From NCBI GenBank assembly GCA_964016885.1, contig OZ024743.1, positions 259,160,001-259,224,000 of the forward strand: a stretch of 64,000 bases of DNA, written 5' to 3'. The translations under genes were made by a program, and so were the position numbers. Of the stretch, positions 2,923 to 61,674 are shown one piece after another. Origin of the DNA: Eledone cirrhosa (Eukaryota). The notes beneath the pieces are model-generated. The model did no database searches and had not been told where the DNA came from. It saw nothing but the letters and a program-made list of their open reading frames with translations. Within the stretch, counting starts at the first letter, position 1; the number at the start of each line of letters is the position of its first letter.

Positions 2923-2963
<41 letters not shown>

Positions 2964-8862: not shown

Positions 8863-8892
<30 letters not shown>

Positions 8893-8895
<3 letters not shown>

Positions 8896-9024
8896 CGAAG
8901 GAAGTGTGGTAAGGAATCAGGTGGACCATAACGCACCAGAGTACTCGATACTTTGCGTAGTAGAGTGGGTAATAGGAAAAGAGTCAGAACCCCCACGGCA
9001 GAGCTCGGGGTTCTGACTCTTTTC

Positions 9025-9027
<3 letters not shown>
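8893..9027 (-). mobile_element. Short fold-back repeat family I (other copies at 19300-19475 +, 21660-21832 -, 42220-42290 -), probable PLE 3' ends
   Basis: Shared gtggtaagg..ggaccataacgcaccagagtactc..gtagtagagt block in three copies, each with its own terminal hairpin; the 42220 copy has only the ggaccccgacggctgagctcc part. All are flanked by microsatellites. Confidence 0.7.
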
Positions 9028-9069
<42 letters not shown>

Positions 9070-11075
9070 CATACTTACACACATACACATTCATACACAC
9101 ACACATATATATATATATACATATGCGTGTATGTGTATATATATAAACACATACACACTCAACATATCTAGTCTTCTTGAAAGTTAGGTCTCCAGTTTGG
9201 GAGGTACATTATGCCTCACTATATTCTGATGTATTAATTCGGGAGCCGGAATTAGGGATTCCAGTTGCACCTTACATTTTGGTACCTTGAGGAAATTTCA
9301 CAAAACGACTTCCGTTTTGCGAAATCAGCTCTAATTAATAGTCAACTATGTTGATAGTTTATTATCAATATTAGAGATATCTGTGTATTACATGTTGTAA
9401 GTCGTGTCTAATTGATGCACAAGGTCAGCAATTTTATTGGAGGGGAAATTCAATTATATCGATTCCAGTACTTGACTTGTATTTTATTTTATCGACCAAG
9501 AAAGGAGCAAAGGAGAAGTTGAGCACAGCGATTTAAACTGATCACATGCTATTAATACACCTATTTATTACTAAATCCTTTTATTTCAGTCTAAAGGCTA
9601 AGAGTGTACAGCACTAGTATCTAGGAAATATAAACATAAAACATAAAATGATCCGTTATTCAGCATTCAAGAAGTTTCATTCATAGAATTTTCTAGAGTG
9701 ATATATATCAGGGTGATCGATTAAATCTGATTGTACCTTTATTTGATTAATCTCGCTGCAAGTTCCAGAGGAATCTGTCGTCATGTTTATATTCAATATT
9801 CCATAGTAACTCTCTTCATTTATTTTAATATCCTGATAAAATCTTTTTCCATGTTTTTCACATAGATCACATACATTTTCATGGGGGTGATCAAAGTGAG
9901 TGCAGAATTAATGGACAGTGGTAGTCATTTTAGAACCAAACTTATTAACATTAAAGAACAGGTCCTTTACTGATTCAGCATAGTTATCTGTCTTATGGTT
10001 ACCCAAAATGTTTTGACAGCTAGAACAAAGTACATTACCATGTTACTTGATACATTGTCGCCAGTCCTATTCAACGTTCCGGACCTTAAACATAAATATT
10101 TTCTTCTCTGCTTTATTTGTTTTTGTGGCTGAAATAAATACATTGGATGGAAAGGGAATCAGTATAGAACTATGTCGAAAATATACATATAAACTGACGA
10201 TGAGATACTGGACAAATAATATTACAAACATCTTAGTACAAAATTTCTGATATTGCATTTGTTGTTAAAGAAACAAATGAATGTGCTATAATCGATTTCC
10301 TAAACATGGAGGGCACAATATTGAAAATTAAAACAAAAGCAAGAAACAACAAAAGCAAAACAACTACAAAAAACAGTGAATATAAAGTAACAAAATTCAA
10401 AAGAGAAACAACTTGAGATACGTAATCAGAACTTTGGGTTAAATAAAACTCTCAAGGATTTGAAGAAGGTCAAGTGTTATTCTCATTAGAGTCGGAACAG
10501 ATGGCTTTAAGCATAAAAAGGCTTCCATTCTACTTCAAACAACTTTAAATAAAACCAAACGTCACCATCATTAAAAAAATAATCTACACTGATTGGAACA
10601 GTTAATATGTTTAGAATGAACGTGGATTGGCAAGATCGATAGAGTGTCAGACAAAATACATGTGTAATATTAATATTTCATTAGGGCATTTCACGTTCTG
10701 ATTTCGAAATACTTCAAGTTTAACTGTGCTGTAAGCACTTTAACATCCTGTAATGATTTAGCAATATATATATATATATATATATAAAAACAAATAACGA
10801 AACGAAATCAAACTTCGTTTCGCTTCTAACTCACTTTTGTATGACTGACGCTTAAACAATTAAGTTAAAGTGTACATCTACATATGTATACGGAAGTATT
10901 AGTATGCATATAAATACACACATGTATACATATGTACATGTACTCAGCTTTTCACTAGACACTTTACAGTGAGTGTCAGCTAGTCTGTATGTAACCACAC
11001 AGGCGGACCGGGTTTTAGAGTCATACGAGTTTTCAAGGAAACACATTTCCTCTATTCTCCAGAGGGCCAGACAGG

Positions 11076-11120
11076 AATATTGGACTAGTTTCGATGTTAT
11101 TACATCTCATCAGCAATATT
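11076..11120 (-). ncRNA. Type I hammerhead ribozyme (family A, inverted arm)
   Basis: Exact reverse complement of 11274-11318. Confidence 0.9.
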
Positions 11121-11273
11121 TACCCATCTTCCGGCTTCTCTGGAGAATTGTAAAAGCACATATCGTTATATGCTTTTTCTATGCAAATTGGTCTACCCAC
11201 TACTAATTTTCATAGAAAAAGCATATAACGATATGTGCTTTTACAATTCTCCAGAGAAGCCGGAAGATGGGTA

Positions 11274-11318
11274 AATATTGCTGATGAGATGTAATAACAT
11301 CGAAACTAGTCCAATATT
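11274..11318 (+). ncRNA. Type I hammerhead ribozyme (family A)
   Basis: aatattg-CTGATGA-gatgt(aata)acatc-GAAA-ctagt-C-caatatt: 7-bp stem I, 5-bp stem II, palindromic ACTAGT stem III, GUC cleavage triplet. Confidence 0.92.
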
Positions 11319-11742
11319 CCTGTCTGGCCCTCTGGAGAATAGAGGAAATGTGTTTCCTTGAAAACTCGTATGACTCTAAAACCCGGTCCGCCTGTGTGGT
11401 TACATACAGACTAGCTGACACTCACTGTAAAGTGTCTAGTGAAAAGCTGAGTACATGTACATATGTATACATGTGTGTATTTATATGCATACTAATACTT
11501 CCGTATACATATGTAGATGTACACTTTAACTTAATTGTTTAAGCGTCAGTCATACAAAAGTGAGTTAGAAGGGAAACGAAGTTTGATTTCGTTTCGTTAT
11601 TTGTTTTTATCGTTTCCGCTGAACCGGTGCGTACAATGACTCACGTTCTATGCAAATTGGTCTACCCACTACTAATTTTCATAGAAAAAGCATATAACGA
11701 TATGTGCTTTTACAATTCTCCAGAGAAGCCGGAAGATGGGTA

Positions 11743-11787
11743 AATATTGCTGATGAGATGTAATAACATCGAAACTAGTCCAATATT
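11743..11787 (+). ncRNA. Type I hammerhead ribozyme (family A, second tandem copy)
   Basis: Identical to 11274-11318, exactly 469 nt downstream. Confidence 0.92.
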
Positions 11788-12005
11788 CCTGTCTGGCCCT
11801 CTGGAGAATAGAGGAAATGTGTTTCCTTGAAAACTCGTATGACTCTAAAACCCGGTCCGCCTGTGTGGTTACATACAGACTAGCTGACACTCACTGTAAA
11901 GTGTCTAGTGAAAAGCTGAGTACATGTACATATGTATACATGTGTGTATTTATATGCATACTAATACTTCCGTATACATATGTAGATGTACACTTTAACT
12001 TAATT

Positions 12006-12036
<31 letters not shown>

Positions 12037-12578
12037 CTATCTGAGTAACCCGTCGTTGCCAGGCAATAATCACATTTATTTCATTTTTTTAATTCCATGT
12101 CAGATATTATCTTCCCCTGGGTCGATTTATAATGTTTATATAAACAATGTTTCTGGTATTTTCCCATCTGGTGCATAGATGTAAAGATTTTTCTGACTTC
12201 CTACTCTTGAACAACCAGCGTAAAGCTGGCCATAAGTGAAGTAGGGCTTTTCAAAGTGTAAACCGGCAACCGAAAATGTTTGTCCTTGTGATTTATTGAT
12301 GGTCATGACAAAACTAAAACTGACTGGAAATTGAAGTCGTTTGAATTGAAATGAGACATCAATAGGGATAGGATGAATTCTTGGCATGAACATATCCTCT
12401 CCCCTACCATATCATCTTGAAATGGTGGCTTGAATCACGTGTGGATTCATATTTTTCACAAACAATCGAGTACCATTGCATAGCCTTGCTGGGGCGAAAT
12501 TCCTCAATAACATGATGGGTGCTCTTTTTTTAAGGTGAAAGACATGTGGAGGCATTATCGATGGTTCTAAAGAGTCTA
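12037..12578 (-). mobile_element. Helitron 3' fragment: PIF1-like helicase C-terminus and 3' terminus
   Basis: PIMLLRN..RLCNGTRL..FMPRI..FKRLQFPV..MTINKSQGQT..GQLYAGCSRV; ends in a GC hairpin (cctggcaacgacggg) followed by atagt, similar to CTAGt. Confidence 0.85.
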
Positions 12579-13409
12579 TAGCTTGATTGGGTACTCGCTG
12601 CCTTAACGCTACATCTGTTACTACATAATGGCATTGACAAAATTACTCAGAATAAGAGCAGAGAAGAAGAGTCTTTTCCGCAATACATATTAACAATATT
12701 AGTAATACGATAGGATAATTAATTACTGTTGTCCAAAACCACATATTTAAAGAAAGAGATGAGATTGTTTGAAACTCATTGCCCTTCAAGTATATATTGA
12801 AATGAGAAATAAAATTGCGTGCGTTGATGGTATAAAATGGCTGAGACTAACGGTTAATATGGAGCTCATTTCTTACTTTGTAGCGATTGCTAAGCCAGAA
12901 CATAATGCTTTGACTGTAATGAGGTCTGAGTAATACGGAGTAAAGTTGAAGCTAGCCACTGACTCAATCAGCTATCTGCGTTTGATACGTTTGGGAAGCC
13001 ATTTTGCTTTCACAGCTAATATTCTTGTAAAAACCGGGAACATCCAAATTTACGAAGAGATCAACCAAAATTAAACAACTGTTGCCGAAATATCAGGTAC
13101 TAGTCAAAATACGTTATTGACCGATTTGACCCGAAACGATTTCCTATTGATTAAGTTGCAGTTACTTCTAATGTGATAACATAATGATTAGTATATATAG
13201 AACATTTTATAGTGAAGTAGATAAAATATGAATATTTGATACTTCTAACCAAAACCTCTTTGTTGAAACCGTTCATTAAAACAGTCTATTCGGGCTGCAT
13301 TGAAATTTCTAAAAATAGTTATACTCTCAATAACTGTGAAATCACTGCAATCGAAAAGTTTCAGATTATGTTAGGCTACTGTAATTCTCAACAGTCCCAT
13401 ATCTAGAAT

Positions 13410-15020
13410 AAAGCTGATGTTTATTGATGTCAATATAAGGATATATCTACAGCTGACGTTTATTGATCAATCTAGTGACATATCTTCATCTGGTGTTTAT
13501 TGATGTCAATATAAGGATATATCTGCAGCTGACGTTTATTGATCAATCTAGTGACATTTCTTCATCTGTTGTTTATTGATGTCAACATAGCGACTTATAG
13601 ATGTCAACATAGCGACATATCTACAGCTGTTATAGATGTCAACATAGTGCCATATCAACAGCTGTTTATAGATGTAAACATAGCGACATATCTACAGTTG
13701 TTTATAGATGTCAACATAGCGACATATATCTACAGCTGTTATAGATGTCAACATAGCGACATATCTACAGTTGTTTATAGATGTCAACATAGCGACATAT
13801 CTACAGCTGTTATAGATGTCAACATAGCGACATATCTACAGTTGTTTATAGATGTCAACATAGCGACATATCTACAGTTGTTATAGATGTCAACATAGCG
13901 ACATATCTACAGCTGTTATAGATGTCAACATAGCGACATATCTACAGTTGTTTATAGATGTCAACATAGCGACATATCTACAGCTGTTGTAGATGTCAAC
14001 ATAGCGACATATCTACAGCTGTTATAGATGTCAACATAGCGACATATCTACAGTTGTTTATAGATGTCAACATAGCGACATATCTACAGCTGTTATAGAT
14101 GTCAACATACCGACATATCTACAGTTGTTTATAGATGTCAACATAGCGACATATCTACAGTTGTTTATAGATGTCAACATAGCGACATATCTACAGCTGT
14201 TATAGATGTCAACATAGCGACATATCTACAGCTGTTATAGATGTCAACATAGCGACATATCTACAGATGTTATAGATGTCAACATAGCGACATATCTACA
14301 GTTGTTTATAGATGTCAACATAGCGACATATCTACAGTTGTTTATAGATGTCAACGTAGCGACATATCTACAGTTGTTTATAGATGTCAACATAGCGACA
14401 TATCTACAGTTGTTTATAGATGTCAACATAGTGACATATCTACAGTTGTTTATAGATGTCAACGTAGCGACATATCTACAGTTGTTTATAGATGTCAACA
14501 TAGCGACATATCTACAGTTGTTTATAAATGTCAACATAGTGACATATCTACAGTTGTTTATAGATGTCAACGTAGCGACATATCTACAGCTGTTATAGAT
14601 GTCAACATAGCGACATATCTAAAGATGTTATAGATGTCAACATAGCGACATATCTACAGATGTTATAGATGTCAACATAGCGACATATCTACAGATGTTA
14701 TAGATGTCAACATAGCGACATATCTACAGATAATACCCATTCATGTCAATATAGCAACCTATCTGCAATGCAGATGATTAATGTGTATTGATGTCAATTA
14801 TAGTGACATATCTACAGCTGGTGTTTATTGATGTCCATATAGCGACATATTTACAGCTAATGTCCATTCATGTCTATATAAGGACATATCTACAGCTGAT
14901 GTTTATTGATGTCAATATAACGTCATATCTACGGTTGATGTCCAGGATGTCAATAAATCGATATATCTACAGCTGATGTTTATTGATGCCAATATAACGT
15001 CATATCTATAGTTGATAATC
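13410..15020. repeat. 35/36-bp minisatellite; homogeneous core about 13595-14730 with degenerate flanks
   Basis: Unit tagatgtcaacatagcgacatatctacag(ttgttta/ctgtta), about 30 copies with no spacers. Confidence 0.95.
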
Positions 15021-16160: not shown

Positions 16161-16789
16161 CCTGCATTTATGACTGGAAATGATAAGTTTAACGAGGAGC
16201 AGAGTCTATGTCAGTCAGAATCTTATCTACCTAGAAATTGATCCATTATACTTGGATGAGTATCTAGCATGTTAGGCTAGCTTTGATTCATGCGCAACCT
16301 TCTCCTAATTATGCTCCCCATTTCCCCAAATAAAATAATTTCAGTTTACAGTTTGCCAAGCTGAAAAACCTAGCTTGTGATACTTCCGACCACACTAAAA
16401 AATTTACAAATCTTGCAGTTTCACTTTTAAGTCCACACTCATACCAAATCCTATGACATATCATAAGACTCTCTCCTCCGTTGATAGAGGTTCACGCTTT
16501 GATTACCTATTATCAATTATCATATATACCGAATCGGGTTTAGAAGATCAGCAAATTATTCTCTCCACCTTGCGAGGATGCACCTTTCTGAAGAGAGGAG
16601 AACCCCAGATGCACTCCTGATAGCACGTGTGGAGGAGGACTTATTATTACGAAGTCGGCGGATGATCTGCCTGAACACTTTATTTGCTGATCAGAAGTCG
16701 GATTCCAGCTTAAACCCAAAGTCCTCACATGTGTTACGTTTGCCCGCCTTTACTGTCTCTGCTGCGATTCTCATGCCTGGATCTCTGGA

Positions 16790-17760
16790 AAGGCAATGGC
16801 AATCGGGAGTGACAATTCCAAAGTTTAAAAAGGGAGACAAGAGATATTGCTTCAATTATAGAGGGATCGCCTTGTTAAGCCTCCCCGGTAAAGTCTACGC
16901 TAAGTGTCTGGCAAAACAATGTAGGGAGATTCTCGAGTCCAAGCTAGCTGATGAACAGAGTGGTATTCGCTCCGGACGCGGCACAGCCGACCAACTATTC
17001 ACAATGTGGTAGGTTTTTTGATAAATCGTGGAAGTATTGCGAAGATGTATATCCTTGCTTTGTAGACATTGAAAATGCTTATGACCTGCCGTGGAATGTT
17101 CTACAGGAGTATGGAATTGTACGTCAGTGTCATGTTGTCCTGATGTCTCTATATACGAATGTCCGAATATTTGTGTTCGGATAAATGGTGCTAAATCGAA
17201 ACCATTCAACGTGGGAGTCGGACTCCGTCTAAGTTGCGTACTATCACCTCTCCTCTTCATTATCTTTATGAACAGGATTGACATGCACAGCCGGATTGGA
17301 AGTGATATCACGACTAGCAAGTGTGGAATCAGTCGGCTAAAAATTGCAGATGACGTGGTATTACTAAACTCGACAGGTGATCTCCGACTTGCACTTGATG
17401 GATTTGATGCTGTGTACCGCATAGCTGGAAAGAAAATTAGTGCTGCGTAAACTGAGACACTCGTCCTCCCAAGGAAGCCTACGCAGTGCACTTTACATGT
17501 GAATGGAGTTCCACTGAAGCAGGCAGAGAAGTTTAAGTATCTTGGAGCCGTGTTCACGAGTGATGGAAGACAGAAGGCTGAATTAAGTTCAAGAATTGCA
17601 GGAGTTGGAGCAGTAATGCGCCAGCTTCAGCATTCAGTAATCAGAAGGGAGGTAGGTGTAAAAGACAAACTCGCTATCTTCAATTCGGTATTCGTGTCAG
17701 CTCTTCCCTATGGTCATAAAAATTGGGTAATAGCCGAACGAATACGATCGCGAATACAGT
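16790..17760 (+). mobile_element. Decayed RTE-clade LINE RT region
   Basis: FKKGDKRYCFNYRGIALLSLPGKVY..EQSGIRSGRGTADQLF..FVDIENAYD..GLRLSCVLSPLLF..ADDVVLL..FKYLG across three frames. Confidence 0.9.
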
Positions 17761-17763
17761 ACC

Positions 17764-19115
17764 CATCATCATCATCAGGTCGAGCTTACTCGGCTTTCTA
17801 CGACACGTTTCCTCCATCCATCTCTGTCTTTCATAGCGTTTGCCAGTTCTTCCGCAGTGCATCCAGTATCGTCTTCAAGTTGCATGACGTATGTCTTCTT
17901 GGGACGACCAGCGTTTCTTGCTCCATAACAACACATCACCTGCTATTTCTTCCTTGCTGCGCCAACAGTGGCCAGCAAATCTGAGTCTCTGTCCACGTAT
18001 TGACCTGCTGATAGGTGGTATATTGCCATAGAGATCCTTATTTGTTGGGTGTTCCCTCCAAGACACGTTTAAAGCAGCGCGGAGCATACGTGTGTATGCC
18101 CCGTCTAGCTTTTTCTCCAGTTCCGACGTTAGCGTCCAAGTGATAGAGCCATAAAGAAGCACAGATTCCACAGCAGCTCTGAAGAAATTCCTTTTCACTT
18201 TGGCCGGCAGGTTTGATTTCCATATCTTTTCCATTGCATTCGATGCTCCCCAGGCTTTTCCCAGTCTGATGTTAACATTATGTTCTGTGGAGGCGATACA
18301 GCTACCCAGGTATTTGAAGTCGTCAACTTGCTTGATTATATCGCCGTTTAGACTTCGCATACCAACTGAGGAGTCTTGGTTCAGGCAAATATATTCTGTT
18401 TTGCCTGCGTTGACATAGAGTCCGATTTCCTTTGCAACTGATTCGATGCTGTGAAGTAGTGATGTTGCATCCTTAAGGTAGTCAGCGAGGACCGCTAAAT
18501 CATCCGCATAGTCAGCATCGGTGATTTTCTGAGCTGCATAGCGTCTACATTTTCGCTTTGTGAGAGTGAACCCAAGCTCTACGTTTTCGTCCAGGGCTTT
18601 TCTCAATCCATAGTCGAGGCAGATGATAAAAATATATGGTACAAGAGTATCCCCTTGGAGTACTCCTGCAATGATGTCAAAGAAGTTGGTATCTCCATCA
18701 GGTGAGCGCACCATTGCGTGGGTATTTTTATATAACATCATGATGGCATTTACTGTTTCCTTTGGCAAGCCGTAGGCTAGAAGTATCTCTCTCATCCTCC
18801 AACGATGGATGGAATCGAATGCTTTTGAAAAGTCAATAAACAGGAGAGTTGCTGGGAGGTTTTTGACTATTACGCCTTCCAAGATACGCCGAATAGTAAG
18901 TATTTGCCCTGATGTTGATCTGTTGGTGCGGAAGCCATTTTTGTTTTTTCTCAGCAAGGGGTCAATGACAGGTCTAATTCTGTCAAAAAGCATGAGATTG
19001 TATATCTTTGCGGCAATTGCCATTAGAGTTATGCCACGGTAGTTTTTAGCCATTCCAAGATCGCCCTTTTTTTGAAAAGGGAGTATACATCCCTCAGTCC
19101 ATTTGTCTTTCAGGA
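17764..19115 (-). mobile_element. 5'-truncated RTE/RTEX-like LINE with largely open RT frame and (GAT)n tail
   Basis: KKGDLG..NYRGITL..GFRTNRST..FIDFSKAFDSI..GVLQGDTL..YADDL..FKYLGS; minus strand ends ...ctcgacctgatgatgatgatg, abutting the + strand LINE tail to tail. Confidence 0.92.
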
Positions 19116-19214
19116 CACACTGAAATGAATGTTTGAGGACTCTGCCCCCACGACCATCAAGGGAATAAGTAGGTGAAGAAGAATATAAGAAGATAGATAC
19201 CGAAATATGTATGA

Positions 19215-19259
<45 letters not shown>

Positions 19260-19266
19260 CGCCCCC

Positions 19267-19302
<36 letters not shown>

Positions 19303-19629
19303 GAAAAATTCGGGACCCCGACGGCTGAGCTCCGTTCGGATCTAGCTGTCGAAACGGCCGGAGCTCAGCCGTTGGGGTCCTGAATCTTTTCATATAACCC
19401 ACTCTACTACCCCAAGTATCGAGTACTCTGGTGCGTTATGGTCCACCTGGTACCTTACCACACCCTCTTTGTTATATATATAAAGTATATTTGTGTGAAT
19501 GTGCGTGTATGCAGACACATGTATAGACACATAACTTCACAGAGTTATACACACAAAATATCGAGAAAACCAAAGAATAAAGAGATCATTGAAATAGATA
19601 GCAGTATGTTATATATTTATCTTACATAT

Positions 19630-20282: not shown

Positions 20283-20660
20283 ATGAATGTGACTATGAAA
20301 GGCTTGTCAGATGAAAAATAACTTTTTATATATTGAAAATAATATCTATATCAGTATTTATTTGCGTGTTATCGGTTAAACACACATGCATGATAACTAT
20401 CCACGTATAGACGTATATCACAAGCACACACACATTCACACATACACACATATTATATGTTGATTGGCAGTATCAGTAGAGGGTCGTACGCCATGCTTTC
20501 CAGCATAGTTACGTCCCTTTACGATCTGAGTTCAAATCCTGCCGAGGTTGACTTTGCCTTTCATCCTTACGGGGTCGATAAAATAAAGTACCAGTAATGC
20601 ACTGGTAAATTGCTGGCCTTGTGCCTAAAAGTAGAAACAATTATATATATATAGATATAT

Positions 20661-22103: not shown

Positions 22104-22599
22104 GCATGCATACAAGTATATGTATACGCTTGCATATTTGTTTGTTTTAAAAGGGAGGGGAAATAATATGTAGAAATATGTATACAGGAAGTACATTTCT
22201 ACGCTTTCATTTCTAAATGTGTGTATATACATTCCCATAAGCAGAAACCACCATGCATCAAAGAGTTACGGCCCTTTATGGTCTGAGTTCAAATCCCGCC
22301 GAGGTTAACTTTGCCTTTCATCCTTACAGGGTCGATAAAATAAAGTACCAGTAATACACTGGGATAATTGCTGGCCTTGTGCCAAAAAGTAGAAACAATA
22401 TTCTTCATATATGAACGTACATGCATGTAGCTATGCAAGCATAGCTAGATGCATAAATATGTATTTGTATATGTATTTGTGTATGTGCATATATATGTAT
22501 TTGTATATGTGCATATATGTATATGCATTTGTATATGTGCATATGTATTTGTATATATGCATGAGTATTTATATATATGCAGATGTATATGTAACGACA

Positions 22600-30709: not shown

Positions 30710-33217
<2,508 letters not shown>

Positions 33218-37224: not shown

Positions 37225-38565
37225 TCATGTGTGAGAGACTTCTTTCATTTCAATATTTTGCAAGTCGGGTTTTTCAAGCTTTTCTTCGCTGGAGTCATCT
37301 AAGTTCGATGACGTCAACATTGATCTAAGGCTTGGGCTATCTATAGACACATGAGATATACAATGTGAATGTTCACTCGGTTTAGAAACGTCACTGGCGA
37401 TATCAGAGTTATTTTCACTAATATTTGAATTATCATGAATACCACTCTGGCTGCTGTGAGGTTGAGGAGAATTCGAACAACCAGAGCATACTGTGTTCAC
37501 CGAAGGACGACGACTATCTGGTGCATCGACTTGATGTACTGAAGCCATGTGAACGATAACAACAGGTAGGCTATCATTGGAATCTCCTTCACTCATCGGT
37601 CTGTTCGGATGAACGCAAAGATATTGCGTATTAGGTGTAACGTTCTCAGCAGTTTCATCGACCCGCAATTCATCATCTTGTTCATAAGCGGGATTTATAA
37701 TGCCAGTTGACACACTACATACACTACTCGATACTACCGAGGCCCTCCGCATAGCATCACTACTTCGTGTCAATCTGAAGTCATCAAAGGCAACATTATT
37801 TGATTTTCGTCTCGTATAAGAAACATGTGATAGAAAAGCTGACGATAGCGCATTATGAAACGGTTTGATGTTTGGCATTGAATATGCTTTATTGGCTATT
37901 TCTGAACTTTTAATAGGATGCGTTACCATCGAACTACGACGAGATGAGGCTGGGAAAGTTATTTTATAGGCTGTTTCTTTCACTCCACTACTTTCTCTTA
38001 AATTTGTGCACACATTTGAATCGGAACTGCTTGTCAGTTCATTTGAGTTAATGCTTTTTACTGCCATTTGTTGGAAAGGCAGTTGTATTCCACGAAAATA
38101 ATTTTTTCTAAAGCTCTCTACCACCAACTCATAAATGGCTTCTTTTTTTAAACTACGAATCCGGATTTCGTCTTCAACCCTTAAATATTTGTCCCTAAAT
38201 TCACAATACATTACACAGGAAACTATTACCATAAAAGCTCCCATAGCCATAATTGGAGGTCCGACATACGCTAACACTTTTAAGTGGATATTTCGAGGTG
38301 GTTCCGGTGGTTTCACTGGTAATCGAATACTTTGAGATAAAATAGATGATTCCGGGTAATATCCTAAGATGCTCATTGCTATTCCACCGACTGATATCAA
38401 CGAGCCAATAAGTGTACCGATCAATGTTGGCAAAAGGCAAGGGATGTTTATAAAATCTGCAATTTTAAAAGGCCGGCGTACTTTTCGTTTCGGTCTTCGG
38501 CGTCTAGAACTGAATACAGGATGGTCAGTATCATTATAATGAAGCCGTACGCGAGGGACGAACAT
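37225..38565 (-). CDS. TMEM200: TMEM200-family (DUF2371-like) two-pass membrane protein, 446 aa, single coding exon
   Basis: Long non-repetitive ORF. Basic N-terminal stretch (RRRRPKRKVRR), TM1 ending GIAMSILGYYP and TM2 LAYVGPPIMAMGAFMVIVSCVMYCEFRDK resemble the TMEM200 motifs GIAMAVLGYWP and GPLIMGIGIF..C...HENRDK. A long Ser-rich tail follows. Confidence 0.85.
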   Translation of the reverse strand: MFVPRVRLHYNDTDHPVFSSRRRRPKRKVRRPFKIADFINIPCLLPTLIGTLIGSLISVGGIAMSILGYYPESSILSQSIRLPVKPPEPPRNIHLKVLAYVGPPIMAMGAFMVIVSCVMYCEFRDKYLRVEDEIRIRSLKKEAIYELVVESFRKNYFRGIQLPFQQMAVKSINSNELTSSSDSNVCTNLRESSGVKETAYKITFPASSRRSSMVTHPIKSSEIANKAYSMPNIKPFHNALSSAFLSHVSYTRRKSNNVAFDDFRLTRSSDAMRRASVVSSSVCSVSTGIINPAYEQDDELRVDETAENVTPNTQYLCVHPNRPMSEGDSNDSLPVVIVHMASVHQVDAPDSRRPSVNTVCSGCSNSPQPHSSQSGIHDNSNISENNSDIASDVSKPSEHSHCISHVSIDSPSLRSMLTSSNLDDSSEEKLEKPDLQNIEMKEVSHT

Positions 38566-42339: not shown

Positions 42340-42479
42340 CGTGTGTACGTGTGTGTGTACGTGTTTACGTCTGTGTCTGTATTTATATCAAAATATTTTT
42401 TAAAATCATGTTCACTTAATTTCTAAATAATCAAAACCAAAACATACACAGATATGTATATAATGTAAAATGAAATTGG

Positions 42480-42576
<97 letters not shown>

Positions 42577-42643
42577 GTGTGTGTGTGTGTATATATATAT
42601 GTGTGTATATATATGTGTGTGTATATATATGTGTGTATATATA

Positions 42644-42695
<52 letters not shown>

Positions 42696-43247
42696 TGGGT
42701 GTCTGTGACCTATATACCCTGGTTACAGACACACACATACACACACACACATAGACACATACACTCACATATATATATATATATATATATACACACACTT
42801 AGAAACCCTTCCTATTTAGCTGGAAATATTCGCTACATCTTAACACAAGTTATATGATACATATGACTTAACATTCAGTCACCAAATTTGAGCTAGATAC
42901 AGTAGTGCTGTTTTCGATTCTTTCAAGTCACCTGTTATAATGTCATTCAACACCACCACCAGCTCTCTCTCCTTCTCTCTCTCTATGTATCTCTTCAATC
43001 TACTCTCTCACAACAACTATATTTTTCTCTGTATCTTTCCCTCTCTCTGTTTATGAATGTATCCGGAAAGACCCCCGTCTCGGTAACCCGTATTCTGGTT
43101 TACACGAAACTTGTGTTATTCCATTTGTATTACCATTTCAGGGGCAACTTCCTTTCAAAGTATTTTGCCATTATGCGCTGTTTTGGCTGTATTAAATTAT
43201 TAAATTATAGGCAAGCACACAATCACAGAGTTTTAGTAGTATATAGA
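42340..43247 (-). mobile_element. Non-autonomous Helitron-like element, 5' end at 43247
   Basis: Minus strand starts a|TCtatatactactaaaactc. Internal blocks are shared with 59320-59480 and 60890-61170. 42013-42150 is an inverted partial copy of 42340-42480. Confidence 0.6.
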
Positions 43248-46081
43248 TGTATATATTGGGCCTTTCTGTTTTCTTTTATAACATTTATTAGATGCTTGTA
43301 TTTAATATGTATTCTGAAAATCGAAAACATAATGTTTCAATTGTACCATAAATGTGACATTTATATTACTTTAAATCTAACAAAAATATTTTAGCTCTAA
43401 TTTAATTGTTAACCTTAAAGACATCCTATATACATATATACGTACACACATACATCCACATACATAAATGATGTTTATATGATGGCGATGACTTCGATAC
43501 GAATATATCTAAATGTCGGCTCTTCTCCATCCGCCCTGTATGCATGCATACTGGGTACTAAGGTGACCGATCTGAGAATTGTAGATGTACCCATAGCGAC
43601 AGCAGGGAAATGTCTCTATATTTCTTGTTTTCACCGTGGCACAGCATTTCCGCTAGGCTCTGCTCTTCCCCAGACTGACACGACGATTCGTCTCAAATGC
43701 ACTGGTAGCCTGCCGGAAGGTGCAGTGCTAAACATTGCTGACGGCCGTCTGGGTCATTTTTAGCATGTTTTTGTCCCGCTTTTTGAGTTTCCTCAAGGGG
43801 CGTTTCCCATCTTAGTCTTAGGCTTAAAATAAAATGTTGAGCTTGCAATTGACGAGGTGATACAGATCGACATTCTGTACTTGAAATCTAATCTCCCTGG
43901 TGTGACACATATCCTTTTGATGATGCCGTCGCACAATTATCTAGTTGATTATGTGCAATATTTTAGGCTATGGGTGTATCCAGATCGATTTTAGCCAGTT
44001 TTCCTGTTGAAAGACTCCTGCAAGTCGTTCCCCCTCCTTTGATTTTCCCCTCCAGTGTACGGAACTCAAGGCGGTTGCAATTTGCAGTGTCAAGATTCGT
44101 TATAGCAAAGTTAATCGTGGCCCCAACTTTCATGACGCTTGGGGTATGCTTTTTCTTCTTTAATGTAGTTCGGCCACAGCGACGATGTATTCCAATACAC
44201 CCAAATAGGTGTATTGGAAACAAACGTTTTTAGAGCCATCTTTTCTAGGCTCTTCTCTGTGTGGAACCAGCAGTGGTATCCCTAAAATGGGATGCCAGGT
44301 CCTCCAGGCAGCTATCAGATGTTGCTATTGTCTCCGAGTCAACAACAGATGACATTCTGTCTTGAACCACCTACATATATGGTTGGGACTGCAGCTTCCA
44401 GTGACTTCTTTCGGTTGCCGTTTTACCCCTCTACCATCGTTGTAGGACTTTCATAAGATTTGTCAATGTGGGACATTGTAAGGTTTGACATGATATTTAT
44501 GCCTGTGCATTGAGATTTAAAAATGGGGTGCAGTGTGCACATAAATGGCTCCAACCTTTTGACCTGGGATTCGTCTGTCATATCCAGGCAATTTGGGACG
44601 GTGACAAGGTCCCCAGATTGTAGGATTTATTTTGGCGTGTCCTTCTTCAAGACAGATGCCAAATATAGCTGAGGAATCTGCCACTCATGTGAGGCTGGTT
44701 AGATTTGTAATCCGAGTTTCTTTCTACTAGATCGGCTGCCTCCTAAGGCTGGCGAATTCTAGCTGCCCGGAGCTATTTTGTTTTGAGGCGCCCCAAAACT
44801 CACGTTTCACACCTTCGTCATGTTTTAAACAGGGGTCGGCACGGAAATACAAGAAATAGGAGTTTGGTTAGGAGAGGCTGTTGGAGACGATATTTATATG
44901 AGGCATTGAGAAGGTGGTTCAACTCTTCTCTCTTTCCTGGCCATTCTAATCCCTTTCACCCCCATATACTTACAATGTCATACATACATATACACATACA
45001 TGCGTACATACATACGTACATTACATGCACACATATTTACATACACACGTACACACATGCGTGCATACACATGTACATACATACATATACACATATACAT
45101 ATATATACCTACGTAACCACATATATACATATGTACATATATACATATGTACATACATACATACATGGATTCATTATACAAAGATACATGCATATATAAA
45201 TACATACGTAAATACATACATACATACACACACACATCCATTCACACATATACTCATACATACGTGCATACATACGTGTATACATAAGTACGAACATTCT
45301 TTCATACATACATATATGCACACCCATACATAATACACATACATACGTACACACACATACATGCGTGCATACATATTACATTCATGCATACGTATACATA
45401 CATACAAACGCACATACATGCTTACATACATACATACATGCATACATACATAAACACATACATGCATAGACCCATCCAATATATATAAGCATTAAGAAAT
45501 ATTCTATTTAGCAACAATTATCATAAACATTTTACCTTATTAACTTTAGGTTGAAATCTTTCCAAATTTTTAAGATTATATTGCACTTAGCAAATAACTG
45601 CGCATCTTTCATTTTATTTAAAATATTAAATCAAGTTATATGAACGATGAGTATTTGATGAGGTCACTAAGAAGTTCACTTTCTGTTTCTGAAAATGCGT
45701 AGCAAACGTATCCTTGTTTAAATGCAATCATGATCCTTCTCTCACAAACAAACACCTAAAAGAGCCAGTATAATTCTCTTGCAGTAACGTCATAGTTTCA
45801 GGTCTGTCTGTATTTATTTACAGTATACATTTCAGATCACTGAACTCTCAGTTCAAATACCGCCGAGGTCAAATTTGCCTTTCATCCTTTCGAGATCGAT
45901 AAATAAGACACCAATCCAGTATTGGGGTCAATACTTCTTTTTCTTGCCCCATGTATATCGTTCTCACACACACACACACACACACACACGCGTACACACG
46001 CGCACACACACACGCACGCACACGCGCACACACACAAACATATACATACACACACACACACATATACATATACATACACAG

Positions 46082-46121: not shown

Positions 46122-46461
46122 GTGTTTTTTTTATCATTTATTTTGTTTTGTCCTGTTTAACTTGATTTGCTTTTTGGCTTAGGTGGTTGATGCTTTCTTG
46201 ACCACTATTTCAGTTTTGTATGGCCTCTTAACATATTGTTTAGCTCTGTTTTTTTTTTAAACTAAGGAGCGCTTTCCAGCATTATTTCCTGAGTTCAAAT
46301 CCCGCCGAGGTTCACTTTGCCTTTCATCCTTACGGGGTCGATAAAATAAAGTACCAGTAATGCACTGAGTAATTGCTGGCCTTGTGCCAAAAGTAGAAAC
46401 AATTATTTCTGATTTTTGCGTTTCGTTTCGCCTTTTCTACCCGCCGAAATGCGATTCTTGC

Positions 46462-50392: not shown

Positions 50393-51009
50393 AACATAAA
50401 TTATCGAGAATCGCATTTCGGCCCACGAAATAACGAAAAACAACCTCCGAGATGTGTGGCAAGTGCTCAATGATTCAGATGAACCAGAGCTATAACAAAC
50501 GTTAAAGGCCAAACACACTGAGACGATGGTTAAACAATCATTTGCATAGCCAAAAATACGATCAAGTAATTCGGGTCAAACAAATAAAAAATATCTGTGA
50601 TTATATATATATATAAAAGGAAAACAGATGAAATCGAAAATGCAACTGGAGTTTTTTTCAGAATATTTATTTGGCTCCTTTACCGGTTTCGCAGTTCTTA
50701 TGCTTTTCAAAAGTAGAATTGAGATGGAGGGTTTGTGGTTTTTCTCGTATCTGGTTGGTGTTTGAATTTTACTTCTGTTTTATGTGGAAAAAGGTGGTTC
50801 GAAATGCTAGGTTTTTTTAGAAGAGTAATTTGGTTGGTTGATGACTGTCACGTGAATAAGTATAATAACTTTCGCGCCAGTTCGCGTTACAAAGTTCTAA
50901 TATTTGCTTTAAAAAAGAGGGGGGGGGGACTCAGATTGTTTTTTTATATATGAGTGAAATTTGGTTGGTTGATGTAGTCACGTGAATAAGCACATAAACT
51001 TTCGCGCCA

Positions 51010-51266
51010 AAGGATGCAATGAAGATTATATAGGACAAACTAAACTCACACTCAGAAACAGAATGACAATTCATCGCCAACAATTACGAGACCCTACCAC
51101 AAGACAGATACCATTCAATGCACATCTAGAGATATGCGCAAGCGATAAGACACCCAAATTTCAAGTCTTTCCACTTTATTTTTGCGCTGAACAAATACGA
51201 ATAAATACGAATAAATAAGGAAAATATGTTTATTCAAAAATATAGACCAGCATTAAATATAGTTTA
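51010..51266 (+). pseudogene. PLE GIY-YIG endonuclease C-terminal fragment (frameshifted)
   Basis: GCNEDYIGQTKLTLRNRMTIHRQQ..AHLEIC..then KENMFIQKYRPALN* in another frame. Confidence 0.88.
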
Positions 51267-51473
51267 ATATACATTATGTCAACACCATAACATGCTAACC
51301 ATCCAAACATACACATACATACACACACACATAACACCTTCTATATTCGAAAATAAAAACCAGAGCTAAATAAACCTTCACATACATTAATACTCTAACA
51401 CCTTAACATGCTAACCATACCTCCCCCCACACACATAACTCCCTTCACCATTTCTACTAACGGAATCATTTTC

Positions 51474-51512
<39 letters not shown>

Positions 51513-52236
51513 TATATATTCTCTCCATCTTAACATGCTAACCATACTCCCACACACACATATAACACCCATAGACACACACACACATAACTCGCTCCCC
51601 CATTTCTACTAATAGAATCATTTTCCTACACACACACACACACACCAGCACAAAAATAAAAATACATATCTCTACTTTCTTTATTTCAATAGAAAGTCTG
51701 AATTTTGACACACCAGCACATCAGCCATACTCACTGAACCAGAACAATTCTCCTCCATCCCTTTTTTCTTGACCATTATCTTTTGTGTGGCACAACATTC
51801 TCTAAATGGGTACAAAAAAATTCCCAAATACGGGCGCAAAATTTAATGTACTTATTCACGTGACAGTCATAACCAATTATATTACATTTATAAAAAAAAG
51901 CTTTTTGAGCCACTTTTTAAGTGAAAAGAAATTCAAACACAAACTGGCACGAAAGCTGATGTGCTTATTCACGTGACTACATCAACCAACCAAATTTCAC
52001 TCATATGTGAAAAAACAATATGAGCCCCCTCCCCCCCTTTTTAAAAGGCAGATATAATAAGAATTTTGTAACACGAACTGGCGCGAAATTTATTATACTT
52101 ATTCACATGACAGTCATCAACCAACCAAATTACTTCTCTAAAAACCTAGCATTTCGAGCAACATTTTTCCACATAAAACAAGTAACATTCGAACACCAAC
52201 CAGATGAGAGAAAAACCGCAAACCCTCCATCTCAAT

Positions 52237-52272
52237 TTTTTGAAAAGCATAAGAACTGCGAAACCGGTAAAG
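52237..52272 (+). ncRNA. Minimal hammerhead variant with U3-A8 core (family F; also 50678-50713 - and 53989-54024 +)
   Basis: (c/t)tt-TTGAAAA-gca(taagaac)tgc-GAAA-ccggt-A-aag; palindromic ACCGGT stem III; lies in the pseudo-LTR. Confidence 0.7.
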
Positions 52273-52515
52273 GGACCAAATAAATATTCTTAAAACACTC
52301 CAGCTGCATTTTCGATTTCATCTTTTTTTCTTATACTTTCACTGGTCTAGGACATCTCGTCTTTTTTCATTTTGGAAAAAAAACCTCATTTTCTAATATC
52401 TTTCTGCTATATCAAGCGTTAACCCAATATATACCTTCCATATACTGTACCGATTGTGTTGTTATTTCTGTTTGCCTTTTACATACAGACACACACACAC
52501 ATATATATATATATA

Positions 52516-55859: not shown

Positions 55860-56750
55860 GAAACGAATGAGTCGGATCAAGTAGCTCCAAGAAACAGCGA
55901 TTAGTGTAGTATCTGTTTAGAGGCAAGTAGAGGAGGTGACACTGGATCAAGTAGCTTCAGTGAACAGGCATCAGTTTGGTATCTGTTAAGAGGCAGGGAG
56001 AGGACATGACATTGGATCGCGTAGCTCCAAGAAACAGGGATCTATGTGGTATCTGTTAAGAGGCAAGTAGAGGAGGTGACACTGGATCAAGTAGCTTCAG
56101 TGAGCAGGCATCAGTTTGGTATCTGTTAAGAGGCAGGGAGAGGACATGACATTGGATCGCGTAGCTCCAAGAAACAGGGATCTATGTGGTATCTGTTAAG
56201 AGGCAAGTAGAGGAGGTGACACTGGATCAAGTAGCTTCAGTGAGCAGGCATCAGTTTGGTATCTGTTAAGAGGCAGGGAGAGGACATGACATTGGATCGC
56301 GTAGCTCCAAGAAACAGGGATCTATGTGGTATCTGTTAAGAGGCAAGTAGAGGAGGTGACACTGGATCAAGTAGCTTCAGTGAGCAGGCATCAGTTTGGT
56401 ATCTGTTAAGAGGCAGGGAGAGGACATGACATTGGATCGCGTAGCTCCAAGAAACAGGGATCTATGTGGTATCTGTTAAGAGGCAAGTAGAGGAGGTGAC
56501 ACTGGATCAAGTAGCTTCAGTGAGCAGGCATCAGTTTGGTATCTGTTAAGAGGCAGGGAGAGGACATGACATTGGATCGCGTAGCTCCAAGAAACAGGGA
56601 TCTATGTGGTATCTGTTAAGAGGCAAGTAGAGGAGGTGACACTGGATCAAGTAGCTTCAGTGAGCAGGCATCAGTTTGGTATCTGTTAAGAGGCAAGGCG
56701 AGGAGGTGACACTGGATCACGTAGCTCCAAGAAGCAGGGATCAGTTTGAT
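55860..56750. repeat. 120-bp higher-order minisatellite made of two related 60-bp subunits, about 6.5 units
   Basis: Sequence recurs exactly every 120 nt; subunits share tggtatctgttaagaggca..gagga..tgaca.tggatc..gtagct. Confidence 0.95.
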
Positions 56751-56913
56751 ATCGGTTGGAGAGACTAGGATAGACTAGGATAGACAACCCATCCGTGGAG
56801 CAGAATGTGCAATGTATTTTTGAGTGATTTCATGTCAATCAGTTTAATTATTACCAGAAAAATGAGACAATAAATGTTTATCCTAATTGTTTCAATATTT
56901 GACATAAGATTTT

Positions 56914-56979: not shown

Positions 56980-58440
56980 TGTGTGCGTGCGTATGTGTGT
57001 ATATGCATCTATGTGTGCGCATGTGCGTGTGTGTGTGTGTTGGACATCCCTTCCGATGACGACTGTTCCAAATGTTTGATCAACGGGACAGCCTGTGAGT
57101 GGAATTAACGTGTACGTGGTTAAGCAATCCACAGACCCATATACCTTTAAGATTATTCTCAGGAACATTAAGTGTGACACAATGTGGCACAGTGTGACAT
57201 AGTGTGACACAGTGTGACACAGTATATGTCAAGGCTGACCGTTTGAAATACAAATACAACTCATTTTGTCCAGCAAACATGAAATAAAGTGTCTTGTTGA
57301 AGGACACATTTCAAAGAATGAACATAAAGACAATTCAAATGATTCAGCTAAAATTTCCCACTGATGACTATGATTATTCCTTAGCGACAAACATTAATTT
57401 TTAAGAGAATGAAACATAAAACTATGTTTCACCGACACTAACCATAGTTATTTAGCGTTGTTTTCTTCTTCAATTTTAATTTTATTTGTCGTCTTCACTT
57501 CTATTTCATCTTCTCTAATTACATCTTATTCTCTGTCCTTTCTTTCTATTTTCTTTTTGTTTCTCTTCTTGCAATAGCCCGCCCCGATATTTGCGCTTAC
57601 AATACGCAATTGAATTATATTCCAAATATTTGATAATAGCAAAATACAAATTACCAACAACACAATTGTAATGCAATTGTAATGCAAAAATTAAAACCTT
57701 CCAATTTAAGATAATGAGAACGGCCATGTAGCTATTGTTGATGGTGATTTTGCCGATGGCAAACATTTCAGTTTTCTCAGGTGAAGCTAATTCAGAAGAA
57801 GCTAACATTATAGTCTGTTAATTTTAATAAGAGATAATAATGAGATATTTTCATTGTTACAGAACTGACATTCATTTTAACGATACCAATGATTTTTTTC
57901 TAAGATAGGCACAAGGTTAGTAATTATGAAGGTGGGAATAAGACGTCAAATCTATTCCACACTTGACTTGTAATTTATTTTATTCATCTTAACAGGAGGA
58001 AAGGCAAAATTGATCTCGGATTGATTTGAACTCAAGACATAAATATTCCGAACAAACACCACAAGGTATTTTCTCCGACCTTCTAATAATTGTGCCAGTC
58101 AAAAATAGCTTGTAATTTAGACACAAGGTCAGAAATTTAGTGGAAGGAGAAAGTCAATTAAATCGACCCCAATACACAACTGGTGCTGTATTTTATTGAT
58201 CTCAAAAGATGAAAGGTAAAGTTAATTCCGTTGGGATTTGAACTCAGAATATAAAGATTTGGAAGAAATACCGTAGGGCATTATGTTCTCCACTCTATCG
58301 ATTCTGTTAGCCATATTCTAATAACAGCAAGAATACTAGAATCGAAATAAAAACGGAAATATTTAAATTTTCATTCATAAATCGTAAACACAGATATGTA
58401 TGCATGCATACATTCGGCTCCATATATATATAATATATAT

Positions 58441-58898: not shown

Positions 58899-59094
58899 CA
58901 AAATGTTTTTTTTCCATTTCAGATAGACGCGCTCCATCATCCACTTTTCTAAAAAAATAAATCATGCACAAAACGCGAGCATCAACAGTTTACCAAGAGA
59001 TGTCAACATATTTGGACCTGTTATTTTTATCTAAAGACATTTTTTTCCAATTCCAACCCGCCCGTTCCTTCAATCTATCTTATTTCTCATTCTT

Positions 59095-59130
59095 TCTTCT
59101 GATGAAGGACTAGCGTCCGAAACGTTAAGA
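59095..59130 (+). ncRNA. Minimal hammerhead ribozyme (family E) within element at about 58995-59210
   Basis: Same motif as 34169-34204; the flanks differ at several positions but the motif is identical. Confidence 0.78.
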
Positions 59131-59547
59131 CCCTCTTCCTGCTATTTCAAGCGTTAACCTAATATATTCCTTCCATATATTGTGTTGTTATTTCTGTTTA
59201 CCTTTTACTTACGCACACACACACTCACACACGCACACACACACACACATTCACACACATATATATATACTAGACCACACGTGACCCGTTGGGTCACGTT
59301 TACTTAAAAATAATTTTAATAATTAAAATATACACAGACATGTATATAATGTGAAATGAAACTGGAAGGCCCATATATACGTGTGCGTATATATACGTGT
59401 GTGCATGTATATATATATGTATGTGTGTGTATATATATATGTGGGTGTCTGTGATCTATATGCACTGGTCATAGACACACACACACACATATACATACAC
59501 ATATATACACACACACATATACACACACATATATACACACACACTCA

Positions 59548-60133
59548 CCGTTTATTTTTGAGAATCGGAACCGAATCGGTAAAGGTAACCATAGTAAGTA
59601 CAGTTAATTTTTTAAAATTTATTTTGAAACTTTATCTTATTTGCTAAACCTTGATTATATATGTTCTGGCTCGTTAATTTATTAACCTGCCATCGAACCA
59701 CATTGGCATACGTTTGGACAATACATGTGTCCCTTAGCGCCTGTGCGTGTAGGAACACATATCCTATTATTACTACTCTCCTCTATGTTGAGAAAATTTG
59801 GTCGTTCTGACTGCTGCTAGTTATAGCAGTAGCCATTTGACCTCCCTGCCTCTGCCTTTATCTTTACACTCGGCCCTTGAAAAAATTGATTCCACTTCAT
59901 TTACTCTCATCTCGGGAACAATTTTGAATAGCCCCAGTTCGTAATTTGAATTCGAGAATTTTATATTCTCCGAATGAAAAGATCCTTCTGACGAGATTCT
60001 TTCTTTGCAACGAAGGCCGTATGGACTCCGTTTATTTTTGAGAATCGAAACCGAATCGGTAAAGGTAACCATAGTAAGTACAGTTAATTTTTAAAAATTT
60101 ATTTTGAAACTTTATCTTATTTGCTAAACCTTG

Positions 60134-60140
<7 letters not shown>
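59548..60140 (+). mobile_element. Non-coding hammerhead-bearing element, family D: 480-nt unit with about 113-nt terminal redundancy
   Basis: 59548-59660 repeated at 60028-60140, then (TA)n. Confidence 0.85.
59984..60065 (+). ncRNA. Type I hammerhead ribozyme with extended loop II (family D)
   Basis: cctt-CTGACGA-gattctt[...]gagaatc-GAAA-ccgaatcggt-A-aagg. Confidence 0.85.
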
Positions 60141-60173
<33 letters not shown>

Positions 60174-60494
60174 AATATGTTGAGAAGGTAACACACCAGA
60201 GAGAGATATATAATGCGTTATCAATAATACAGGGAAAAAACCACCAGTGTATGGAATCTATAACCTATGAAAGGCAGACTATATTTTTAATTATCGTGTC
60301 TATAGTCTGCCTTTCATAGGTTATAGATTCCATACACTGGTGGTTTTTTCCCTGTATTATTGATAACGCACTATATATCTCTCTCTGGTGTGTTACCTTC
60401 TCAACATATTACATTTTAAAGGGCTCAGGATCTCTTCCCCTTTGAGCACATTATTTACAGGGAATAACGACGGCTTATGCCTCCGTTAATTTAT

Positions 60495-60541
<47 letters not shown>

Positions 60542-60655
60542 GAAGTTATGTTTAATTTGTTGGGATTCAACAAGCTTAAAAGTTTTATCCAGCGAACCTT
60601 CAATCGTCAAGGTTGTTTTTCTACGGGTATGTCAACATTTATAAAACATATTTTG

Positions 60656-60720
60656 TATTTTATCTGATGAAAGCGCACCAAAATTGCGTTGGTTGCCCTT
60701 GAAATATATATAATAAAATA
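60656..60720 (+). ncRNA. Type I hammerhead ribozyme motif
   Basis: tattttat-CTGATGA-aagcgcaccaa(aattgcg)ttggttgccctt-GAAA-tatatat-A-ataaaata: 8-bp stem I and an imperfect long stem II. Confidence 0.75.
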
Positions 60721-60760
60721 ATTATTGTTTTATAAATATAGTTTCCATTTATTAATATAT

Positions 60761-60801
<41 letters not shown>

Positions 60802-61674
60802 ATACTTTGGAAGGGTCATGTTGCCAATAATTCAGAAATGAAATATATATATATATATATATACACACACAACAATAAGTACACGCGCTCTCTCTTTCTT
60901 CCATTCTCCTTCTCTGTCACCTCCCCCTCTCTCTATATCTCTATTTCAATCTACTATGTCACAACCACTATTTCTTCCTCTCTATCTTTCTCTCTCTCTG
61001 TTTATGAAGGTACCCGGAAAAACCCCATATCTCGAGAACACGTGCACCGATTAACGCGAGACTTATTTTATTCCATTTGTATTCCCATTTCAGGAGCAAC
61101 TTCCTTTCAAAGTATTTTCCCATTATGCGCACTTTTGGCTGTATTACATTACAGATAAGCAAGCAAGCAAATCACTGTCTTTTATATATACTACCAGAAA
61201 AACCACACTTCGAGTGGTTTTCTGCTAGCATGTGTAGTGTGCATATTGATATTATACGCAGGTATATATACATGTAGATATGATACATCAAATAAAATCG
61301 TAATTGACAATATATAATACATAGAAATTGAACGAAGACAGTGTTACACTGTCTTAATCCATGATACATTAAAAAAGACGATATTATATATAAACTGCAT
61401 TAGGAGAAAATTAGTGACAGAAAATTAGTATGTTTATTTAAGCGATCGCCAACCGGAAGTGTTGACCTTTCAGAAATTTTTAAGAAGTGAAACTTTAAAT
61501 AAACAATATATATTTAATCAACTGTCACGAAATTTAGTAGATAAACTATGTAATATTCATTCATTATTTATTCAAAGTAATCCAACTTATTTTACTAAGG
61601 GGATAAAAAGATTATATACCGTACACAGTCCTCCGCTCTTTACTTTATTATAGTTTAGATATATATATACCTTA

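Follow-up and report, generated by a model that had tools for sequence, protein, structure and literature searches.

A dispersed 480-nt hammerhead unit in an octopod genome, probably a non-LTR retrozyme of the non-autonomous Penelope-like class

The 480-nt unit described here is likely one dispersed member of a family of non-LTR retrozymes, that is, of a non-autonomous Penelope-like element (PLE), in an octopod genome. It lies in a window of 64 kb, which is the whole stretch of DNA analysed; coordinates are positions within this window, and the orientation is (+) unless stated. The unit is ORF-less, carries a type I hammerhead core, forms a partial tandem, belongs to a multicopy family and ends in (TA)n; its two ends derive from one template, and it is nested in another element. 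By analogy with known families, its RNA would be transcribed head to tail, cut by the hammerhead and circularised by an RtcB-type ligase, and a PLE would mobilise it. The locus is a well-supported addition to the non-LTR retrozyme or non-autonomous PLE class that is apparently unreported in cephalopods; no report of octopod hammerhead retrozymes was found in a search of the freely accessible literature (further papers cited: PMC3088659 and PMC8490949). It would extend hammerhead retrozymes to octopods. It also documents clearly that more than one unit was copied from a single template into (TA)n; such copying is an open question in Penelope-type transposition. The features are as follows.

59270..59299 (-): Helitron-like 3′ end, with a 9-bp GC-rich hairpin, 5 nt and CTAG, then T; no second end of this kind was found in the window
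59295..59547 (-): the part of the host to the left of the unit, which is colinear with the paralog at 42385-42800
59475..59547 (no strand): left flank, a CA/TA microsatellite belonging to the host element
59548..59660 (+): upstream repeat, 5′-truncated; it carries the terminal hairpin and, of the hammerhead, the 3′ half, in which the core variant GGAA, the palindrome of helix III and the cleavage site (after 59581) lie
59582..60061 (+): predicted unit-length RNA between both cleavage sites, 480 nt; fold z -3.2 to -3.7
59984..60065 (+): type I hammerhead, with helix I 59984-87/60062-65 (4 bp), CUGACGA 59988-94, GAAA 60047-50 and the cut after 60061
59995..60046 (+): extended helix II arm of 52 nt, with 7 bp, a 7x7 U-rich internal loop, a distal interrupted hairpin and a tetraloop cap (60019-60022); MFE frequency 0.50
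60028..60140 (+): downstream repeat copy; family end at about 60136-60142 according to the family reads
60050..60060 (+): near-palindromic helix III, a 4-bp hairpin in the monomer or, paired with 59570-59580 of the upstream copy, a helix of 10 bp
60062..60132 (+): terminal hairpin, closed by a helix (60062-66/60128-32) that is in competition with helix I; the fixed end of the family follows shortly after
60136..60167 (no strand): (TA)n microsatellite, the putative insertion target
60880..61200 (-): the part of the host to the right of the unit, which is colinear with the paralog at about 42950-43250 (84% over 152-164 nt)
61640..61659 (-): candidate Helitron-like 5′ end (TC after A), weak alone, with no second copy of the end in the window

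The repeat and its Helitron-like host

The insert (59548-60140) consists of the ORF-less unit and a 113-nt direct repeat, which makes 1.24 units with one complete hammerhead core. The two repeat copies (59548-59660 and 60028-60140) are spaced at a period of exactly 480 nt and are identical at 111 of 113 positions. One mismatch is G/A at 59568/60048, giving GGAA upstream and GAAA downstream, and the other is T/A at 59613/60093. The GC content of the unit is 37.5%. Its longest ATG ORFs encode 49 aa (+) and 83 aa (-), the latter belonging to no Pfam family, and no ORF remnant was found in the unit by the ORF listing and Pfam. An ORF for a reverse transcriptase (RT) and GIY-YIG protein between the repeats, the mark of an autonomous PLE, is absent, and a pattern search for Pol III A and B boxes found none in the unit. 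A tail of 30-40 bp, which is optional in PLEs, is not visible at the locus. The window is AT-rich and rich in microsatellites; the unit ends are blurred by microsatellites, and no target-site duplication is readable.

A sequence-only reading of this DNA had described an ORF-less 480-nt unit with terminal redundancy, and the period, the 111 of 113 identities and the ORFs of at most 83 aa confirm this. Its upstream partial copy was said to start within loop II; the first base of that copy corresponds to 60028, which is within the arm of helix II. The unit was also correctly said to have no relation to the window's other hammerhead units, since no BLAST similarity to those tested was found. Finally, the nesting in a Helitron-like element is supported by A|TC at 61659, by the hairpin and CTAG|T at 59270, and by a paralog without the unit.

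According to PMC3789558, Helitrons have a 5′ TC, a 3′ CTRR and a hairpin near the 3′ end, and insert between A and T. The host element shares the TC, the CTRR, the subterminal hairpin and the A|T target with the non-autonomous Helitrons of that source. In contrast to them, it is known from one full pair of ends, its 5′ end lacks a second copy, and it has no Rep/helicase. The paralog at 42385-43250 matches the interior of the host on both sides of the insertion, lacks the unit and shows neither host terminus. The host 5′ end (61659) is therefore tentative. Since the paralog is colinear but without the unit, the unit and at least two other elements (60168-60500 and about 60540-60767) have landed in the CA/TA tract of the host. 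Judging from this arrangement, the Helitron-like element appears to be the landing site and not the mover, the unit having been inserted later.

The TC at 60500 was also considered as a Helitron 5′ end and was rejected, because it is part of an inverted-repeat element that also stands alone at 32713-33135. This non-coding element has a long internal inverted repeat; its two copies (60168-60500 and 32713-33135) are 91-93% identical and both lie in (TA)n. More hammerhead-like motifs were found at 60540-60767 and 58647. In the motif at 60664, which lies within the same Helitron-like host, helix III is an AT palindrome and the helix II region is long.

The hammerhead core and its predicted folding

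The downstream core is canonical, with CUGACGA at 59988, G10.1-C11.1, GAAA at 60047 and A15.1-U16.1. The predicted cleavage triplet is GUA, with the cut after its A (60061), and the base of helix II (59995-60001/60040-60046) is 7 bp. With a strict descriptor (at least 4 bp in helix I, 7 in helix II and 4 in helix III), the core at 59984 was the sole match in the window, and 150 block-shuffled 64-kb windows gave none. A looser hammerhead descriptor found six real sites in the window versus one site in 150 shuffles. On the other hand, Rfam returned no match in the window at the gathering score, and the 73 matches at E<=10 in 58900-60900 include no ribozyme. Rfam is probably blind to this hammerhead because of its long helix II arm; thus, similar families may hide among the unclassified octopus repeats. 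The minimal hammerhead motif folds no better than shuffles (z 0.47-0.52).

What looks like a 38-nt loop II becomes an extension of helix II when folded, with a 7x7 U-rich internal loop and an interrupted tetraloop hairpin. The computed energy of helix III is -2.0 kcal/mol as a hairpin (4 bp, 3-nt loop) versus -13.6 kcal/mol as a 10-bp duplex between the copies. By these energies, helix III is palindromic in a way that permits a dimeric ribozyme. The upstream repeat copy has no CUGANGA.

The stems cctt/aagg and gattctt/gagaatc named in the sequence-only reading are present as helix I (4 bp) and helix II (7 bp). Its 5-bp accga/tcggt stem is impossible as a hairpin, for it would leave a 1-nt loop; the segment forms 4 bp with a 3-nt loop and is better described as a near-palindrome. 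The ribozyme had been called clean and intact. Its canonical core is indeed complete, but a fifth helix I pair is lost and the active fold is disfavoured. The GGAA in place of GAAA in the upstream copy is seen at 59568, although the stress laid on it was probably misplaced: that copy lacks CUGANGA anyway, and its site can pair with the downstream core.

Fold ensembles were computed with ViennaRNA, whose energies are those of secondary structure without tertiary contacts or protein. The probability of helix I is 0.34 in 59981-60069 and 0.00 both in 59970-60080 and in the whole insert, where the local active fold lies 8.6 kcal/mol above the ensemble (25 C). The active fold of the present copy is a minority in every context tried, partly because the helix 60062-66/60128-32 takes the 3′ strand of helix I. 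The probability of this competing helix is 0.95-0.98 once 60133 is included and 0.20-0.26 in the circle. The z-scores of the monomer fold against shuffles range from -3.2 to -4.1, and 3 of 20 control windows are equally low (z<=-3.5). A pseudoknot between the tip of helix II (60020-24) and 60069-73 was considered and not adopted, as the distal hairpin accounts for the same variants. One contig of organism B (30 letters, among the best 23 of 203 loose ends) has a different tetraloop with the same flanking pairs, which bears against the pseudoknot.

The family in public reads

Is the unit confined to this locus? Four of the 11 public runs listed (X1, X5, X6 and X9) were compared with 59610-60089 at an identity of at least 80%. 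X9 is a RAD-seq run with the same species label as X1, while X5 and X6 come from two other organisms. Family matches comprise 1095 contigs in X1, 2468 reads in X9, and 9 and 6 contigs in X5 and X6, respectively. The matches in X1 and X9 mostly have 90-95% identity or lower; in X9, 50 of 2468 reads reach at least 99% and 2099 of 2468 are below 95%. Sequence unlike the unit follows in 79% of the X9 reads. The unit thus represents a multicopy family that has diverged and whose relatives are not confined to one species. A 19-nt motif also matched at three metagenome loci, which was put down to chance, as the motif alone matched with no further similarity; a scan of viral sequences with the motif gave no match.

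The variants of the family given below are from the best 40 of 137 variant rows, the best 12 of 13 indel rows and the best 23 of 203 loose ends. At 59634/60114, both repeats here have A, while T is found in 292 of 305 X9 reads and in 98.6% of X1 depth (best 40 of 137 variants), X1 depth being summed contig depth and not copy number. Both repeats also have A at 59575/60055, where T makes up 99% of X1 depth (best 40 of 137 variants); among the best X9 variants and indels, this position has T in 320 of 595 reads and a one-base deletion in 234 of 602. A total of 110 X9 reads depart at 59662 (equivalent to 60142) into (AT)n (best 23 of 203 loose ends). Since 292 of 305 X9 reads have T at 59634, versus A here, most of the departing reads come from other loci, and thus the end of the family is fixed in (TA)n. 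In the family generally, the sequence continues head to tail across 59662; the contigs are too short to show arrays. The two ends of the present insert have rare letters in common and differ at 2 of 113 positions in a family that is 5-10% diverged, which indicates that both were copied from one template unit. This single template would be a circle or a homogeneous multimer.

Several common variants of the family favour the fold relative to the present copy. With 59983 T>A, found in 624 of 983 X9 reads (best 40 of 137 variants), the fifth helix I pair is gained. The change 60025 A>T, in 269 of 538 X9 reads (best 40 of 137 variants), closes a G-A mismatch in the distal hairpin. A deletion at 60054, in 234 of 602 X9 reads (best 12 of 13 indels), makes helix III a perfect palindrome. 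The changes at 59997 and 60044, which together give G-U, are found in 379 of 736 and 296 of 585 X9 reads (51% each), versus 8% and 43% in X1. Since their frequencies are unequal in X1, covariation is not proven.

Proposed mobility, alternatives and other window features

The unit agrees with retrozymes in its canonical type I core, its lack of coding sequence, its length of a few hundred bp, its GC content under 45-50% and its many copies. Metazoan non-LTR retrozymes (PMC7229834; 10.64898/2026.07.22.740005) are also short, ORF-less and AT-rich, with type I hammerheads, head-to-tail arrangement and many copies; the unit differs from them in its 480 nt and in its 52-nt helix II arm. The size of 480 nt is above the range of 150-450 bp given by Cervera and de la Pena 2020 (PMC7229834) and within that of 51-972 bp given by Li et al. 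2026 (10.64898/2026.07.22.740005). Mussel retrozymes of 350-390 bp also lack the usual contacts between loop 1 and loop 2. While retrozyme arrays have two or more complete hammerheads, the present locus has 1.24 units and one core, and is a monomer by the definition of Li et al. Schistosome W-element/Sm-alpha and the newt satellite (PMC8490949, PMC7229834) are likewise repeat DNA whose type I hammerheads are active as monomer or dimer. However, they have long arrays and compact ribozymes, whereas a dispersed copy with an extended arm is found here.

PLEs form partial tandems, prefer (TA)n and carry a hammerhead in the repeat (10.1101/2021.04.23.441226); in these hammerheads, helix II has 7-8 bp, helix I has 4-5 bp and helix III is palindromic (PMC4209133). 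The present locus has the PLE-type partial tandem with a 5′-truncated upstream repeat, and a fixed 3′ end in a microsatellite or AT-rich target. It resembles the PLE pLTRs with minimal hammerheads (PMC4209133; 10.1101/2021.04.23.441226; PMC11167929) in the partial tandem, the 5′ truncation and the (TA)n, as well as in the short helix I, the 7-bp helix II base, the palindromic helix III and a fixed end about 70-90 nt past the cleavage site (72-81 here). It differs from them in having no RT/GIY-YIG ORF, a period of 480 nt versus about 3 kb, a longer helix III, no extra base and no visible tail. The extra base between A9 and G10.1, a trait of the minimal PLE hammerhead in the consensus of PMC4209133, is absent here. 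Its absence makes a minimal PLE hammerhead less likely and leaves the retrozyme assignment unaffected. In the anole PLE, RT starts 111-118 nt into the ORF and the cut is at 26, about 85-92 nt upstream of that start (PMC11167929). Thirty-one recently active Penelope-like families have been described in O. vulgaris (PMC13282606); ribozymes are not mentioned in the text and one supplement of that paper.

In the published retrozyme model, head-to-tail transcripts are cut by hammerheads into units that an RtcB-type ligase circularises (PMC7229834), and a Penelope-type RT/GIY-YIG protein mobilises them (10.64898/2026.07.22.740005). Applied here, family RNA would be transcribed from head-to-tail copies and cut into 480-nt units, most efficiently by pairing of the palindromic helix III between copies, and a host RtcB-type ligase could circularise them. 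A PLE RT/GIY-YIG protein would then nick a (TA)n tract for target-primed reverse transcription, with priming immediately downstream of the terminal hairpin, 72-81 nt beyond the cut. Copying of 1.24 units from a circle or from an uncut multimer would leave a full unit and a 5′-truncated repeat; circular templates have been proposed for more-than-unit PLE copies (PMC4209133). In the finished RNA, the helix 60062-66/60128-32 may keep the ribozyme off.

It is possible, though doubtful, that the unit is instead an internally deleted or truncated derivative of an autonomous PLE that moved via linear read-through RNA, its hammerhead being an inherited and largely idle pLTR motif and no circular RNA being involved. 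The mover would be the same as in the retrozyme reading; the role of the ribozyme and the circle would differ. Summed X1 depth is 23,000-169,000 at both edges of the unit versus 1,500-13,000 at 59738-59880, which is what one would see if only the pLTR part were common to longer elements. However, the middle of the unit is still present in X1, X9 and X5, so that divergence can explain the dip, and no ORF remnant was found. In the anole PLE, the ribozyme requires protein, ribozyme mutants show normal insertion and the substrate is mainly uncut RNA (PMC11167929), and only one of nine Xenopus dimers was cleaved in vitro, while eight were not (10.64898/2026.07.22.740005). These reports agree with an idle ribozyme, whereas the extended helix II and the majority variants that favour the structure suggest selection on the RNA fold.

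Could the unit have moved as DNA? A fragment of a hammerhead satellite array, captured and moved by the Helitron-like element or by microsatellite recombination and without any retrotransposition, would fit the position inside Helitron-like termini, the blurred ends and the missing target-site duplication. This seems quite improbable, because the host paralog lacks the unit, other members of the family share the same end base in (AT)n, and the same TA tracts have collected other, unrelated elements as well (60168-60500, with the stand-alone copy 32713-33135). A dead relic, or a chance motif with a local duplication, is hardly credible. The Rfam results and the unremarkable folding of the minimal motif would agree with it, but the motif is missing from all 150 shuffled windows and the family is multicopy with relatives in other organisms. 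The chance or relic reading is thus refuted for the family; the present single copy may still be inactive.

The retrozyme reading leads to a more speculative idea, which is rather unlikely to be true: a monomer copy with a single core, inert in the classification of Li et al., might still be a source element, cutting after 59581 and 60061 to free the 480-nt unit. In the dimeric form of type I hammerheads, the site cut by each core is that of the other copy. Here, the downstream core (59984-60060) would pair via the palindromic helix III with the upstream repeat and cut after 59581 in a type III-like fold. It would then refold locally and cut after 60061 in the type I fold, giving an exact 480-nt unit for circularisation, with the helix that closes the terminal hairpin as a possible off-switch. 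In the whole-insert ensemble, helix II has a probability of 0.86 and the inter-copy helix III 0.88-0.98, although palindromes pair by construction, and helix I is unformed (0.00). The fold cutting after 59581 costs 5.4 kcal/mol, versus 8.6 for the local fold (25 C). The upstream GGAA lies outside the 59581 site, and the change would thus be irrelevant. A thin literature search found nothing on one core serving two sites. If true, the idea would overthrow the working rule of two complete ribozymes per retrozyme and would account for the spread of 1.2-unit insertions; it would also make the family a cephalopod retrozyme whose long-arm hammerhead had not been described.

The window contains other features related to PLEs. 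A GIY-YIG fragment at 51012-51203 (Pfam E 0.0023, below the cut-off) has a Penelope-type look and eukaryotic neighbours in the protein atlas. In the region 51012-51260, a stop follows the fragment, and a short tandem duplication near 51190-51217 breaks the region. The unit has no match to the GIY-YIG region 50600-52500. An ORF-less hammerhead family with a 469-nt period is found at 10784-12010, where an inverted 5′-truncated copy precedes a partial tandem (340/340 identical). Two of its three ends have an extension of about 68 nt and both outer ends lie in (TA)n; it looks very young and has the textbook Penelope layout without an ORF. Members of a minimal PLE-type hammerhead family, with a 4-nt palindromic helix III and an extra base after A9, are at 59099 (+), 34200 (-) and 52399-52486, and end about 86-92 nt past the cut in a microsatellite.

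Elsewhere in the window, a single-exon ORF (37228-38565, -) encodes a DUF2371 (TMEM200-like) protein; among five matches at E<=1e-20, its identity is 87% to a record labelled Argonauta hians, 65% to cuttlefish and 38% to an oyster protein, which places the host of the window among the octopods. A LINE reverse transcriptase ORF (Pfam RVT_1) lies at 17875-19341 (-), and a second, frameshifted RT-like remnant at 16503-17984 (+), on the opposite strand. Minisatellite arrays with higher-order periods occupy 13412-15007 (36/71 nt) and 55874-56757 (70/140 nt), and an element at 30796-32532 lies between 351-nt inverted repeats (98%). Many copies of a short, putatively SINE-like interspersed repeat were found at 727-5514, 20459-20650, 22253-22399, 46282-46407 and 58101-58256.
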